Below are positions 1,280 through 26,503 of a DNA stretch of 64,000 nucleotides, in pieces. Within the stretch, counting starts at the first letter, position 1; each line of letters opens with the position of its first letter. Position numbers and translations under genes: made by a program. The stretch comes from a bacterium. GTDB taxonomy: Bacteria > Patescibacteriota > Minisyncoccia > Phycocordibacterales > Zambryskibacteraceae. The stretch spans positions 81,935 through 145,934 of the forward strand of contig JAUSGI010000008.1 of the NCBI GenBank assembly GCA_030649135.1, written 5' to 3'. The notes beneath the pieces were generated by a model. The model ran no database searches. It saw only the letters and a program-made list of their open reading frames with translations, and was not told the DNA's origin.

Positions 1280-1322
1280 GGTCGATAAGTTTAGCAGAAA
1301 AGCCCGTCTCTTACAAGGATAG

Positions 1323-1355
1323 AAAAACACCCTCGACTGTTGCCAGCCGAGGGTG
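1323..1355 (-). terminator. Rho-independent terminator (minus strand) between the GC-rich two-gene operon and rpsB
   Basis: An 8-bp stem (caccctcg / cgagggtg) encloses a 12-nt loop and is followed by a T-run on the minus strand, seen as an A-run at 1323-1327 on the plus strand. Confidence 0.5.
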
Positions 1356-1388
1356 TGGTGACTGTTGGGTCTGCGGGAGCGCGGACGC

Positions 1389-1646
1389 TTAGCTGGGCGT
1401 TTCCTGTTTTCTTACCTTCCTTTTCTTGCGAAAAGGAGAGTCACGGTGTAAGACGGTACACCACGCCTTACCGTCGCTTCCAGCCTCGGCGCTACCAGAT
1501 ATATAGCCCCGGTAGTCTACGAGGATGTCCTCAGAGCCGGACATGCCAGGCGTGTGGTTTTCGCACCACTTGATCTCCAGCATTTCCTTCGTGGAGTCGG
1601 CATCTCCTTCACACCCTGGGCAGTAGGGGCGCGCCGTCTCGCTCAT
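1389..1646 (-). CDS. Hypothetical small Cys-rich protein (CPGC...WC...WC), possible zinc ribbon
   Basis: Strong SD 'AGGGAGGG' lies 4 nt upstream of the ATG at 1646. That ATG overlaps the stop of the upstream ORF as ATGA, a translational-coupling arrangement. The region is distinctly higher in GC than its flanks. I recognise no family for the protein. Confidence 0.5.
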   Translation of the reverse strand: MSETARPYCPGCEGDADSTKEMLEIKWCENHTPGMSGSEDILVDYRGYISGSAEAGSDGKAWCTVLHRDSPFRKKRKVRKQETPS

Positions 1647-1900
1647 AGCGCCCTCCCTGCAGTCCACAGACCAAGGTCGTAGAGACGGCGTTTGTCGAGG
1701 TTCGCGTCGTACCTACAACGACTGCACTGTACCCTGATAGACTCGCCTTTCACGAGCCCCATGATGACCATCTCGGCCTTGCAGACGAAGTGTATGGCCT
1801 GGTTGTTCTCGATGGTGATGGTTCTCGGGTTCTTCGTCTGGTCAATCCGTAGGATAGGGGGTAGGTCATCCTTATCACTCAAAAATGCTAGGAGATTCAA
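1643..1900 (-). CDS. Hypothetical protein, first gene of the GC-rich two-gene operon; start codon uncertain
   Basis: ORF whose TGA stop overlaps the ATG of the downstream gene. The first in-frame start is a TTG without an obvious SD; internal ATGs fall at residues 44 and 47. The C-terminus carries 'VQCSRCRYD'. Confidence 0.35.
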   Translation of the reverse strand: MNLLAFLSDKDDLPPILRIDQTKNPRTITIENNQAIHFVCKAEMVIMGLVKGESIRVQCSRCRYDANLDKRRLYDLGLWTAGRAL

Positions 1901-1960
1901 ATAGTTCGGAGCGGCCTAACCCCACCTTACCTAGAAATATAGAAAAATCAACCGGGGTGT

Positions 1961-2746
1961 ATGATTAGTTTTATGTTGAATAAAGAGACCCCAAAAGGCA
2001 GGGATTATAGCCAAGATATCCGTTGGCTACTCGAAGAAAAGTATCATGGTCAAATGAGTGAGGCGGCCCAGACGGACATAGAAAGAATTAAACAGGGTGA
2101 GCCCGTAGCCTATGTTATTGGCTTTGTGGATTTTCTGGGGTGTAAAATTGACCTCTCGCAAAAGACTTTGATTCCTCGAGCAGAGACGGAATTTTGGGTG
2201 GAACAAGCAATCAGAAGCATCAAGAAGGATGTTCCTACAGGGGTAAGGTGTCTTGATATGTTTGCCGGGTCTGGATGTATTGGGGTTGCCGTGCTTAAGA
2301 ACATCCCTTTTTCGACAGTAGATTTTGTGGATTGTGACGCTACAGCGATTACACAAATTGCCATCAACTGTAAACTAAATGGTATCGAAGCGTCTCGTTG
2401 GAAGGTCATAAAATCGGATGGGTTTCAACGTGTAGACGACTCGTATGATTATATTTTTGCCAATCCGCCATATATTGCCAAAAACAGAAGGAGTGATGTG
2501 GCAGAATCTGTCTTAACCCATGAACCGCGCGGAGCACTTTGGGGTGGTACCGACGGCCTCCTCTACATTAAAACTTTTCTCGACCAAGTAAAAGAATATT
2601 TGAATGAAGGGGGCACGGTCTATATGGAATTCGATACTCACCAGAAAGACGAGATAGAAAAGATTTTAATGACTAAAAGTTTTAATAAAATTGATTTTTG
2701 CCAAGATCAATTTGGTAAATGGCGATATCTCGTTTTAATTGCCTAA
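1961..2746 (+). CDS. prmC: Release-factor glutamine N5-methyltransferase PrmC/HemK
   Basis: SAM-binding '[11 protein letters not shown]' and the catalytic 'NPPY' motif are present. The gene converges on prfA. Confidence 0.85.
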
Positions 2747-3628
2747 ATTGGCCGCTGTGGCTTCGAGAATCGGTCCCATCTCCCCTTTCATGATTCTTTC
2801 TATGTTATGCCACGACTCCTTGAGACGGTGGTCGGTAATGCGGTCCTGGAGAATATTATAGGTACGAATCTTCTCCGAGCGGTCCGCGGTACCAATTTGA
2901 GATTTCCTGTCTGCGGAATACTTGGCCTCTTCCTCCTCCTCTTTCTTAGCTTCAAGCTTGGCAATGAGAATGCTCATAGCTTTCTCACGATTCTTTAATT
3001 GGCTTCTCTCGGCAGTAGAGCGCACATCAATGCCGGTTGGTTTATGGATAATCCTGACCGCAGTTTCGATCTTATTAACATTTTGACCCCCGGCACCTCC
3101 CGACCTGGAAGTTTCTATCTCTAAGTCGGAAGGTTTGATTTCAATGGTAGTTTTTTTGCGTAACGGCAGAATAGCCACAGAAGCAGTCGAGGTGTGGACC
3201 CTGCCCATCTTTTCCGTCGCGGGTACTCGTTGGATGCGATGTACCCCAGTCTCGAAGCGTAGTTTCTTATAAACATCCCGTCCGCGTATTTCAAACGCCG
3301 CTTCCTTATAGCCCCCCAGCGATGTATCAGAACTGTAGAGCGGGGAGACCCCCCAGCCTTGGAGAGCGGCGTAGAGGGTATACATTTCGGAGAGTTCTCT
3401 GGCAAAGAGAGCCGCCTCCTCCCCTCCGGCACCGGCACGCACTTCCAGGATAATTTCATTTGGGAACTCATCGTCTTCTCCTGTAATTTTTTCTGCCGAA
3501 AGAATTCTGTCCATCTCCTCAAGCATCATTTGTTTCGACTCCTCGTCTTCGGGAGGCAGGCGTAAAAGAGCCTTGGCTAAATAGGCAGTCTTGGGATTAT
3601 TTTTATATTTTTCTATATCAAAACTCAC
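2735..3628 (-). CDS. prfA: Peptide chain release factor 1
   Basis: Carries the GGQ motif ('[11 protein letters not shown]') and a PAT tripeptide ('RVPATE'), which is specific to RF1. Confidence 0.85.
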
Positions 3629-3930
3629 TTCTTCTTGCTACGACTTGTCCCGAGCTTCGTCGAGGGAACCTTTCTAGGAGTAGCTTGCGCCTGTCTTTGT
3701 TTGAAGCGTTCGACTCGACCTGCGATATCGAGCGTGCGCACCTCTCCGGTATAGAAAGGGTGGGTAGCGGAAGATATTTCTACCCGAAAAACAGGATACT
3801 CTTTCTTGTCTACTTTGGCTTTGGCGGTTTCCTTGGTCACAACCGTGGAAGGAATGATAAATTCTGTGCCATCAGAGTTATCGATAAAAAGTACCGGTCG
3901 ATAATTGGCGGGGTGAATTTCTTTTCTCAT
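3625..3930 (-). CDS. rpmE: 50S ribosomal protein L31 (type B, no Cys motif)
   Basis: Starts 'MRKEIHP' and contains 'HPFYTG', both typical of L31. Confidence 0.8.
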
Positions 3931-24119: not shown

Positions 24120-24130
24120 AAAAATTTATA

Positions 24131-24162
24131 AAAAAATAGGACCCGCCAAGTAGGCCGGGTCC
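24131..24162 (-). terminator. Hairpin terminator for island gene a (GGACCCGCC...GGCCGGGTCC followed by a T-run on the minus strand)
   Basis: An A-run at 24131-24137 on the plus strand precedes a GC hairpin at 24139-24162. Confidence 0.5.
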
Positions 24163-24199
24163 TGTGGCAGTTTGGGGAGGTCTGCCAACCTTTACTTCT

Positions 24200-24388
24200 C
24201 TACTCGGCGGGTCGGAACTTACGACGAGGCCGACTTTGTTTCAGGTCTTCGTCACACCCTACCATCTCCCTTTCTATCACATCCTGGTCAGAGAGGTCTT
24301 CATCCTCCGACCCATGCATCAGTCCAAAACCCTTAAGGAGTCGAATTTCCTTACTCGAAGGATCTACGCCTGTCTTTCTCTTTTTCAT
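24200..24388 (-). CDS. Island gene a: small acidic hypothetical protein
   Basis: 62 aa. SD 'AAGGAG' lies 6 nt upstream of the ATG. The gene sits in the ~60% GC segment and is followed by a hairpin terminator. Confidence 0.5.
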   Translation of the reverse strand: MKKRKTGVDPSSKEIRLLKGFGLMHGSEDEDLSDQDVIEREMVGCDEDLKQSRPRRKFRPAE

Positions 24389-24514
24389 CTGGGCTCCTTA
24401 TGTCCTGCTTCCCTTTCGATTATGTTCAGGGTGAAGGCTTACAGACACTAACGCTCTGTCCTTTAGAGTGGCATGAACAAGCTAGTTTGTCAATTAGTTG
24501 TAATCGTTGTATAG

Positions 24515-24544
24515 AAAAAGGACCCTCCATGCTGGCAGGGTCCC
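24515..24544 (-). terminator. Hairpin terminator for island gene b (AAAAA-GGACCCTCC-N-AGGGTCC)
   Basis: 'aaaaaggaccctccatgctggcagggtccc'. It is near-identical in design to the hairpin at 25517-25545. Confidence 0.5.
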
Positions 24545-24621
24545 GTTGTGAGTTGAGGCCGTGTCCTCAACTCGTTTGTACTTAGGCGTGACATCGGCAC
24601 GCATTGGGATCTGAAACTCTG

Positions 24622-24852
24622 CTAGTCCCCGATCGCCCCACTTCGTGAGAACGGGCGAGAGACGCCCGGTAACACCCGGGACGGATCCATCCCGAGGCGC
24701 TGCCTCAGCCACGCGACCCACTCCGGATAGCTCGGAGTGAGAAGCACGACGACCTCGTCGTAGGTCGGCGTGTCCCCAAGCACGTCGCACACGGCTGGCA
24801 AAAGAAGCCGGCGTGTTTCCTTGTCGAGTCTCCGACCCGATGCGTCATTCAT
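24622..24852 (-). CDS. Island gene b: hypothetical protein
   Basis: 76 aa with a strong SD 'GAGGAGAAGG' upstream of the ATG. The gene is GC-rich. Confidence 0.5.
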   Translation of the reverse strand: MNDASGRRLDKETRRLLLPAVCDVLGDTPTYDEVVVLLTPSYPEWVAWLRQRLGMDPSRVLPGVSRPFSRSGAIGD

Positions 24853-25085
24853 TGCCTTCTCCTCATCGCGCTTTGCGCGACTTTAAACATTTAGCAGTGC
24901 GTCCTCTTGCGAGGCCTATACGCACTGCGGTTCAGCCCCCTCTGTGCGGGGAATCGATACTTGATTATATTTTCTTTCTCAAAGAACTAACTGTTTCGCC
25001 CTTTCGGACTCATCAGCGCAGATACACATCTGCGAACAGCGGGAAGTTTTGCTGAGATACTTCCCGAAACTCTGGGTTTGCACGG

Positions 25086-25406
25086 TTACCCCTTCTTCTT
25101 CTTGCTACCGGCACCCATGCCAGCGGCCATCCGGCGCTGCTCCTCCGCGCGCTCGCTCCGGTGGGCGAGGTAGCGCTTGTGCGCCGCCTCACGGATGGAG
25201 GCCGAGAACTCGGTCTCCTTCCGACGCCGCTCGGACAGCATGCGCCTGGCGCACGCCAGGCGTGGCCGCCAGAAATCGGAGGTCGCGAGTTGCTTGTCGA
25301 GCTCGACCGCGGCGATATCCGCCGCAACGGTCGAAGTGGCGACCTGCACCGGCAGGGTGCAGGCCAGAAACTCTATCACTCGGCCAATGGAGCGTGTCGC
25401 ATTCAT
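25086..25406 (-). CDS. Island gene c: hypothetical Ala/Arg-rich protein with a KKKKG tail
   Basis: 106 aa with SD 'AAGGAGAA'. Upstream on the minus strand lies TTGACAA-N17-TATCAT. Two hairpins follow downstream. Confidence 0.5.
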   Translation of the reverse strand: MNATRSIGRVIEFLACTLPVQVATSTVAADIAAVELDKQLATSDFWRPRLACARRMLSERRRKETEFSASIREAAHKRYLAHRSERAEEQRRMAAGMGAGSKKKKG

Positions 25407-25516
25407 GGCGTTCTCCTTATCGTGCCTCCCCTTCGTCTATACTTAGGGTGAGGACTTTCTAGCTACAATGATAGCATAATACAACTTATTTGTCAATGGC
25501 TTTAAATAGTTAAAAG

Positions 25517-25545
25517 TAAAAGGGCCCTCCGTGTAGGCAGGGCCC
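25517..25545 (-). terminator. Hairpin terminator for island gene d (AAAA-GGGCCCTCC-N-AGGGCCC)
   Basis: 'aaaagggccctccgtgtaggcagggccc'. Confidence 0.5.
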
Positions 25546-25564
25546 AGTCGAAACGCCACCTAGT

Positions 25565-25960
25565 CTAGTAACTGGTGGGGAAAGCAGATGTCAGCGCCTC
25601 CCCCTGGTCGCTTGCCGGGTTGGGGTTGAACCAAACCCGAGAGATGGACCCATGGCCGATGTGATACACGCCGGCCAGAGTACATGAGCCATCCCGCTGT
25701 GCGGGGTGATGTACGAACACCCCGAAACGCAGACGGGCCAGCGCGGCCGCGATGCAGAACGGCACATCCGCGACGGCATAGACGAAGCCATCGCCATGCT
25801 CGCGGACGTAGTCCGCGAGCCCATCCGTGGTGACGAACACCGTGGGGTCCTTCACGATCTCCACGTAAACACCGTGGAGAGTTCGCATCGCCCGCCGCTG
25901 TGTGGGCGACATGTCGTAACGCGATAACCAATAAATCCTCCCGATGTAAATTCTGTTCAT
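25565..25960 (-). CDS. Island gene d: hypothetical protein
   Basis: 131 aa starting at the ATG at 25960 ('MNRIYIGRIYW...'), with SD 'GGGGGAA'. Upstream on the minus strand lies TTGACAA-N17-TATTAG. No family recognised. Confidence 0.5.
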   Translation of the reverse strand: MNRIYIGRIYWLSRYDMSPTQRRAMRTLHGVYVEIVKDPTVFVTTDGLADYVREHGDGFVYAVADVPFCIAAALARLRFGVFVHHPAQRDGSCTLAGVYHIGHGSISRVWFNPNPASDQGEALTSAFPTSY

Positions 25961-26068
25961 GGTTCCCCCACTCTGCCTCCCATTTCTCGGAGGGCTATAG
26001 GTAATACAACCTTGGTCTGCTCTCACTAATAGCACAGCACAATTCTCTTGTCAACAGCGTCCATAAAT

Positions 26069-26503
26069 CTAATACACATTTAGGAGTTTGAAAATTGGAG
26101 CAAGGAACGGGTCGAAATGAGTACCGTAGACGGTGGCGCCGAAGAGTCCGCCGGCAACCACAATAAAAAATAGTCCGATAATAGCCAAGGGAATTATGAT
26201 GACTGGCAAGAGCATTTTAGACCATCTAACGTAAGCCAGAGAAATAATGCCGAAGATAGTGGCAGTGATAAGAATAAAAATTTTATACATGGTTACCAGA
26301 GGACTATCCCCCGCCAAATTAGCGCTCATGTAAGCGGTGACAACCGTAGCAATAGCGCCCAGCTCACCGACTACGAGCAAAGTTCCTTTGATAGGGAGCC
26401 AGTGCGGAGAGTCCAATAATTTTTTGAAACGCATTAGTTCAAAAACAGTATAAGTTGTCAAAAATGCTATGGGGTAGTGTATCACCAGTGGATGAATGTC
26501 CAT
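26069..26503 (-). CDS. DUF2231-like membrane protein
   Basis: 'MDIHPLVIHYPIAFL' matches the DUF2231 N-terminal signature and is followed by 4 TM helices. Confidence 0.55.
   Translation of the reverse strand: MDIHPLVIHYPIAFLTTYTVFELMRFKKLLDSPHWLPIKGTLLVVGELGAIATVVTAYMSANLAGDSPLVTMYKIFILITATIFGIISLAYVRWSKMLLPVIIIPLAIIGLFFIVVAGGLFGATVYGTHFDPFLAPIFKLLNVY

Follow-up and report, generated by a model that had tools for sequence, protein, structure and literature searches.

A GC-rich two-gene cassette, probably of phage origin, upstream of rpsB in a Patescibacteria genome

Between a gene for a PrmC-like methyltransferase and rpsB, in a 64,000-nucleotide (nt) stretch of contig JAUSGI010000008.1 (hereafter the window, with positions counted from its first letter), lies a GC-rich block (~1328-1950) carrying a cassette of two small minus-strand genes. 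The upstream gene, open reading frame (ORF) B, occupies 1643-1900, and the downstream gene, ORF A, occupies 1389-1646; each encodes a protein of 85 amino acids (aa). We consider it reasonably probable that the cassette was acquired horizontally, most likely as a phage 'moron', at a site with the PrmC-like gene on one side and the native rpsB promoter on the other, and that its products are small, non-enzymatic, metal-binding proteins that work as binders. A phage-derived B-A cassette would thus have been inserted upstream of the rpsB promoter in a Zambryskibacteria-like Patescibacteria genome.

Two coupled small genes and their protein families

ORF A, placed by gene call, homologs, and invariant alignment columns, starts with ATG, and the gene calls of a separate Logan assembly of this DNA (L001) include it. 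As the original prediction had stated from the DNA, the downstream gene encodes an 85-aa Cys-rich protein. Its conserved site reads CxxC...CxxH. An acidic core is followed by a basic tail, RKKRKVRK, and the candidate metal ligands are C9, C12, C28, and H31, plus C63/H67. A word-indexed protein search with ORF A returned one homolog (P0002, 57% identity). HMMER with a two-sequence ORF A profile retrieved representatives of 181 clusters at E ≤ 1e-3, of which 23 reached E ≤ 1e-10, and a profile search of a larger collection found 202 clusters at 39-58% identity to ORF A, the best relatives being P0205 (58%) and P0237 (56%). Two alignments, one of 67 and one of 91 members, show no variation at C9, C12, C28, H31, G37, or D40; the larger one adds P10, G51, S52, and G56 to the invariant columns, with W62, C63, and H67 almost fully conserved. 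ORF A of the window retains all of the family-invariant residues. Proteins of the family are 70-130 aa long, their cores have a mean net charge of -7.3, and ~31% carry basic tails. Longer members show no informative domain fusions and look like over-extended gene calls or repeats. Taken together, ORF A belongs by sequence to a large unnamed CxxC...CxxH family that is found in Methylomirabilota, phages, and some Patescibacteria. In an AlphaFold2 model, residues 1-30 have a predicted local distance difference test (pLDDT) score of 81-89 and form short strands at 6-8 and 23-25. The zinc ribbon that had been proposed for this protein is therefore plausible, given a CxxC...CxxH site invariant in 91 members and a confident model of the N-terminal 30 residues, with metal binding itself a prediction.

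ORF B is read from a TTG codon and was left uncalled by the gene finder in the Logan assembly. Its sole homolog came from inspecting the neighbor of an ORF A homolog on contig L092: a 73-aa reading frame (L092:2984-3205), 60% identical over 62 aa, with the ORF A-family gene P0006 following it after 1 nt. No ORF B homolog was found by word-indexed protein search, by two Joint Genome Institute (JGI) metagenome scans, in IMG/VR, or in cultured phages (tblastn). The ligands H37, C40, C59, and C62 (HxxC...CxxC) are kept in both known members, and residue counts made by eye indicate that ORF B is mildly net basic. A comparison of ORF A with ORF B showed no relationship between them. In the window, the two minus-strand frames overlap by ATGA (1643-1646), which joins the ORF B stop to the ORF A start as originally described, whereas the homologous pair on L092 has 1 nt between its genes (TGA-G-ATG). 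Because the ORF B homolog directly precedes an ORF A-family gene on L092, the B-A pair, with its order and tight coupling, is a conserved unit. The start of ORF B had been left in doubt between TTG and an internal ATG. The internal ATG (M44) is now excluded, as it falls within the part shared with the homolog. The start must therefore fall upstream of about residue 22, and TTG at 1900 and TTG at 1882 both satisfy this.

Comparisons with homologs indicate that selection acts on protein. By codon position, ORF A differs from two homologs at 29/29/49 and 31/26/53 sites, and ORF B differs from its L092 homolog at 23/11/39; the 62 aligned codons of the latter pair comprise 16 identical, 21 synonymous, and 25 non-synonymous ones. 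ORF B has a GC content of 0.52/0.38/0.69 across the three codon positions. Because the homologs are conserved with differences mostly at third positions, both ORFs are protein-coding and under purifying selection. That the block holds no genes at all, being GC-rich non-coding DNA or a structured RNA with chance ORFs, or that it is a native conserved segment of this lineage, is scarcely credible. The missing ORF B call in the Logan assembly and the empty word-indexed search for this protein would fit such a reading, but protein-level conservation with third-position bias does not, and no Rfam match was found in 1200-2100 even at E ≤ 10. A tRNA/tmRNA search of the same interval found none. A native segment is further contradicted by the relatives described below, in which the cassette is absent from the corresponding junction in eight of eight. 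The homologs of both ORFs thus bear out their coding status, and the third-position bias contradicts an origin from GC-rich non-coding DNA.

Insertion at the prfA-rpsB junction and the source of the cassette

The cassette stands out in composition, in keeping with the clearly higher GC that was first noted between translation genes here. The GC content of 1340-1905 is 55.8%, versus a window mean of 46.6% (z = 2.6), and the 2% of 560-nt segments that are this GC-rich all fall at the cassette or at a single other island at ~24.1-26.1 kilobases. GC at third codon positions (GC3) is 0.66-0.69 for ORF A and ORF B, versus 0.40-0.55 in adjoining genes. The eight relatives used for comparison are contigs (L003-L010) that encode the closest S2 proteins, at 66-83% identity; they are labelled Zambryskibacteria, Minisyncoccia, Parcubacteria, or Patescibacteria, and two are labelled Saccharibacteria. 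Neither ORF A nor ORF B was found at the junction in any of them (0/8). Because all eight relatives are without both genes, the cassette is a lineage-specific insertion. It is also compositionally foreign.

The junction itself varies. Four relatives (L004, L005, L006, and L008) have the order rpmE, prfA, a spacer of 33-151 nt, rpsB, tsf. L003 has a co-oriented prmC at the junction that is 40% identical to the PrmC-like gene of the window, with flanking genes ~80% identical. L007 has an unrelated gene of 283 aa, and L009 and L010 have 400-500 nt without clear genes. Four relatives have no prmC at the prfA-rpsB junction. The rpsB-prmC interval, whose synteny the original prediction singled out, is thus not conserved in relatives and has variable content, and within this group the prfA-rpsB junction looks like a hotspot of rearrangement.

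The spacer in three of the relatives (L004, L006, and L008) carries the promoter of the window, TTGTA(T/A)-17 nt-TA(A/G)ACT. In the window, this native rpsB promoter reads TTGTAA-17 nt-TAAACT (1288-1316, minus strand); relatives carry TTGTAT..TTTCTGCTA(A/G)ACT at an equal distance from the rpsB start. The rpsB leader after the -10 element is only 8 nt. This conserved promoter marks the point at which host sequence resumes. The GC-rich block is also bracketed by a direct repeat, ATAGAAAAA (family D1, plus strand), with a left copy at 1319-1327 and a right copy at 1939-1947, matching at 81% over 16 nt and exactly over 9 nt. The repeat may be a target duplication; however, by our own estimate 900 nt should contain ~1.5 9-mers of this kind by chance, which makes chance about as likely an origin.

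The local genes, all gene calls, are tsf (99-551), rpsB (ribosomal protein S2; 554-1279), prfA (2735-3628), and rpmE (3625-3930) on the minus strand and the PrmC-like methyltransferase gene (1961-2746) on the plus strand. The last is divergent from ORF B, with 60 nt between them; it is convergent with prfA and overlaps the prfA 3' end by 12 nt.

Homologs of the cassette point to phages. L092, which carries the second B-A pair, has co-directional small genes, three PHROG matches, and a C5 DNA methylase, and is phage-like. The pair on L092 has a GC content of 55-56%, versus 48% for the contig, as expected of a mobile cassette. Nothing beyond the pair is shared by L092 and the window, and no other prophage genes were found near the cassette. 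ORF A-family genes also occur on L093-L095 with terminase, NinG, HNH, and YopX genes, on L086 in a replication module with DnaB, primase, and PolB, and on L091, which has an integrase. Five IMG/VR viral contigs hold members, and in viral contigs such genes adjoin lysis or structural genes (the lysis region in L098 and L099). These occurrences in phage and viral contigs, the absence from relatives, and the foreign GC3 give good support to the inserted accessory module that was originally proposed. Searches of cultured phages with ORF A found no member, and a pattern scan of IMG/VR for the low-GC subfamily found nothing.

Most members of the family stand without ORF B; an ORF B homolog was present in one of 12 other distinct ORF A-family contexts examined (L092). 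Solitary genes occupy two conserved chromosomal positions in high-GC genomes, whose named members are Rokubacteria/Methylomirabilota: at one, the neighbors are a luciferase-like monooxygenase and PutA; at the other, they are GntR-ETF and an M24 peptidase. On L093 (5733-5999), L094 (3866-4111), and L095 (4244-4489), the ORF A-family gene is preceded, after a 1-nt gap, by a gene for a small Cys/His protein (CxxC...HxxC) that is unrelated in sequence to ORF B. This protein may correspond to ORF B without being homologous to it, or the arrangement may be a coincidence.

A second Patescibacteria contig (L101, Logan SRR34331844) has a solitary ORF A-family gene (116-388) upstream of rpiB, with a GC content of 53% versus 44% for the contig, its own terminator, and three flanking 16-nt palindromes, TTGAAGTnnnACTTCAA (39-54, 430-445, and 456-471). 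At the corresponding site in the window, the gene gap runs straight into rpiB. Because this site is uninterrupted in the window, the L101 copy suggests an independent cassette-like insertion in a second reduced genome. The palindrome TTGAAGTnnnACTTCAA was sought around the window cassette and is absent there. A broader scenario, which we regard as a long shot, is that an ORF A-family gene, with or without ORF B, is a self-contained mobile mini-cassette that circulates in phages and Methylomirabilota. In reduced Patescibacteria genomes it would have landed repeatedly in intergenic sites beside housekeeping operons, the two independent cases being those upstream of rpsB (window) and rpiB (L101). 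Its product would then represent a new class of small zinc-finger effector, such as a new toxin-antitoxin system, an anti-defence pair, or a factor that acts on neighboring translation genes.

Expression signals and possible roles

The signals that surround ORF A are strong. A Shine-Dalgarno (SD) sequence, AGGGAGGG (1651-1658, minus strand), lies within the 3' end of ORF B, 4 nt (1650-1647) ahead of the ORF A ATG, where a strong SD had been predicted for the downstream gene. The region upstream of the first ATG of 46 long ORFs was surveyed over the whole window, and SD motifs are at most weakly enriched in this genome: a 4-mer precedes 10 of 46, versus 17% at random positions, and a strong 5-mer precedes 6 of 46 (13%), versus 5%. 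The genome seems to rely little on SD-led initiation, and because SD motifs are at most weakly enriched, the SD of ORF A looks imported. Foreign GC3 and a strong SD in a genome with little SD use both fit a recent acquisition; as an event, it is of a fairly ordinary kind. A hairpin that would occlude the SD (1620-1660) has a free energy of -24.8 kcal/mol, yet it folds no better than shuffled sequences (z = -0.6) and is not claimed.

The cassette ends in an intrinsic terminator on the minus strand, a 13-base pair stem with 8 GC pairs and the tail TTTTCTATCC. A hairpin terminator had been predicted at 1323-1355; the hairpin is present and very stable, but its coordinates are 1327-1356. Its folding free energy is -25.2 kcal/mol (z = -6.68), and none of 200 shuffles folds equally well. 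The U-run (1326-1321) ends 4 nt ahead of the -35 element of the rpsB promoter, and the terminator stops read-through from the cassette into rpsB-tsf.

In the proposed mechanism, translational coupling would allow ORF B and ORF A to be made in a fixed proportion. ORF A, with its acidic CCCH core and Lys/Arg tail, and ORF B, with its HxxC...CxxC site and net basic character, would be small non-enzymatic proteins that bind a metal, probably zinc. They would act by binding a partner, which could be the other cassette protein, a host protein or nucleic acid, or both. This adaptor or regulator role is suggested by their small size, their invariant ligands, the lack of a catalytic signature, and the varied positions of the family in phages. 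An enzymatic or poison-antidote role is unlikely for them.

Several observations weigh against this proposal. Neither protein has a match in Pfam, NCBIfam, PHROGs, PADLOC, or PDB sequences, and a fold search with the models found no match to solved structures. Metal binding is inferred from the conserved ligands. The overall pLDDT of the ORF A model is only moderate (68.8), and the single-sequence model of ORF B is poor (45.6), with beta strands at 35-69 around HxxC...CxxC. ORF B has neither an ATG start nor an SD; nothing in the homolog matches its first 21 residues, the conserved part beginning at about residue 22, and it could be a decaying copy. The B-A pair is known from two loci only, the window and L092. 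A consensus promoter scan found no promoter-like site for the cassette, and given this result and the start signals of ORF B, expression in this genome is unproven. Because of the same scan, a weak candidate that was picked out by eye, TTGATT (1951-1946), 16 nt, TAAGGT (1929-1924) (1924-1951, minus strand), is also unproven. Members of the family also occupy fixed chromosomal sites in Methylomirabilota, which counts against naming a direction or a donor for the transfer.

The library searches bear on an earlier statement that neither product resembles known families, which holds for curated libraries and fails beyond them: ORF A has ~200 uncharacterised clusters of relatives, and ORF B has one homolog. 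Members of the ORF A family likewise gave nothing usable in Pfam, PHROGs, or PDB sequences, and a literature search found nothing specific.

The weak points of ORF B would also suit a non-functional relic of a past phage or mobile-DNA insertion, in which ORF A may still be translated, ORF B has lost its 5' end, and both are neutral cargo. Its TTG start, missing SD, and 21 N-terminal residues unrelated to those of the homolog, the empty promoter scan, and the lack of other phage genes common to L092 and the window are all in line with this. GC3 has not ameliorated, which under this reading means a recent acquisition that selection has barely had time to shape. However, both frames are intact and keep every family-invariant residue, and the coupling junction, the SD, and the very strong terminator are intact as well. 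The missing SD of ORF B says little, because the genome shows little SD use. We therefore view a relic as unlikely, while giving it some weight.

A toxin-antitoxin-like pair was suggested in the original prediction. In such a pair, acting in addiction or abortive infection, ORF B would be the toxin and ORF A a zinc-binding antitoxin that also exists alone. The mqsRA system offers a precedent, with its toxin-first order and an antitoxin, MqsA, that has a zinc-binding N-terminal domain. Two genes of ~85 aa that are coupled by ATGA on one strand, share a single downstream terminator, and are mobile and phage-associated have the expected layout, as does a net basic ORF B beside an acidic ORF A core. 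ORF B has always been found with ORF A (2/2 loci), and ORF A without ORF B is common, as would be the case for an antitoxin though not for a toxin. The idea is nevertheless weak, because homologs of ORF A are nearly always solitary, including at conserved chromosomal positions and in viral contigs near lysis or structural genes; ORF B accompanies the family in only one other context. Neither protein has a PADLOC, Pfam, NCBIfam, or PHROGs match that would indicate a toxin or antitoxin, no DNA-binding antitoxin fold can be recognised in ORF A, the pair is limited to two loci, and weak start signals on ORF B would be odd for a toxin that needs tight stoichiometry. A toxin-antitoxin role is thus improbable, and this part of the original prediction is not supported.

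The neighbors of the two pair loci raise one more option, in which the zinc-finger proteins work with an adjacent methyltransferase in the manner of Trm112, a small zinc-binding activator of Mtq2, the eukaryotic and archaeal counterpart of PrmC. Both pair loci adjoin a methyltransferase gene: the PrmC-like gene lies 60 nt away in the window, and the C5 DNA methylase gene (L092 3706-4968) lies 257 nt downstream of the L092 pair. However, no similarity was found between the PrmC-like protein and the C5 methylase, which are unrelated, and neither ORF matches Pfam Trm112p. In the solo contexts (L083-L091, L093-L095, and L101), none has a methyltransferase as the immediate neighbor of the ORF A-family gene. 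Two loci can coincide by chance, and we judge the adjacency to be probably coincidental and a methyltransferase accessory pair very improbable.

With a horizontally acquired cassette of small metal-binding binders as the preferred explanation, the locus documents gene flow, apparently recent, into a streamlined Patescibacteria genome, probably from a phage. Members of the ORF A family also occur in Methylomirabilota, an unrelated phylum. Two uncharacterised small-protein families outside the curated libraries come into view, one with ~200 clusters and an invariant CCCH site, the other with two known members. Should a definite target emerge for the pair, be it a host factor, a methyltransferase, or a toxin-antitoxin partner, it would offer a handle on phage-host biology in uncultured candidate phyla radiation (CPR) bacteria.

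The second GC-rich island of the window (24120-26070, 58-60% GC) lies between two membrane-protein genes. No convincing ORFs, no Pfam matches, and no similarity to cultured phages were found for it. Within it, at 24988-25042 on the minus strand, the type III hammerhead ribozyme (RF00008) is matched over its full length, with the core CUGAUGAG and CGAAAC intact; the match scores 37.5 bits (E = 5.7e-6), below the gathering score of 48.5. One possibility is that the island is a mobile element carrying a ribozyme; another is a large non-coding RNA.

Comparison with known systems

Two protein families were compared with ORF A directly. Pfam DUF6083, which we take to be uncharacterised and mainly actinobacterial, aligns weakly with ORF A residues 5-68 (E = 0.11, 12.7 bits); the score is far below the gathering threshold of 27.1 bits, and none of 67 family members matches at E ≤ 0.01. 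An HNH nuclease was considered on account of the H31...N59...H67 spacing, which we presume to resemble that of such enzymes, and was rejected. In hhalign, the family profile aligned with the HNH protein of L093 at a probability of 0.5%, a weak test with a single template; no member matches Pfam HNH, and N59 is not kept in the subfamily of the window.

Type II toxin-antitoxin systems such as mqsRA resemble the cassette as pairs of small, overlapping genes that share an orientation, lie on mobile DNA, and include one for a Cys-rich protein. In contrast to such systems, the partners here generally do not co-occur, and they show no resemblance to known toxin or antitoxin families.

Phage morons are compact, have atypical composition, lie between unrelated genes, and end in a strong intrinsic terminator, all of which the cassette shares; the B-A unit also occurs on the phage-like L092 and is compositionally distinct there. 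The cassette differs from them in being lodged between housekeeping genes for translation on a bacterial chromosome, where no other prophage genes lie nearby, and in that the scan found no promoter of its own.

The proteins themselves may be compared with Ogr of phage P2 and Delta of P4 (Pfam Ogr_Delta), small zinc-finger activators of phage late genes. ORF A has no such Pfam match, its core is strongly acidic, and the position of its family varies, from the replication module of L086 to the lysis region of L098/L099. Like Ogr and Delta, these are phage-borne proteins of ~70-90 aa with two Cys/His ligand pairs, and on L093-L095 the ORF A-family gene lies between NinG and terminase, a frequent place for late regulators. 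The cassette proteins would thus resemble small phage zinc-finger regulators or host-factor binders.

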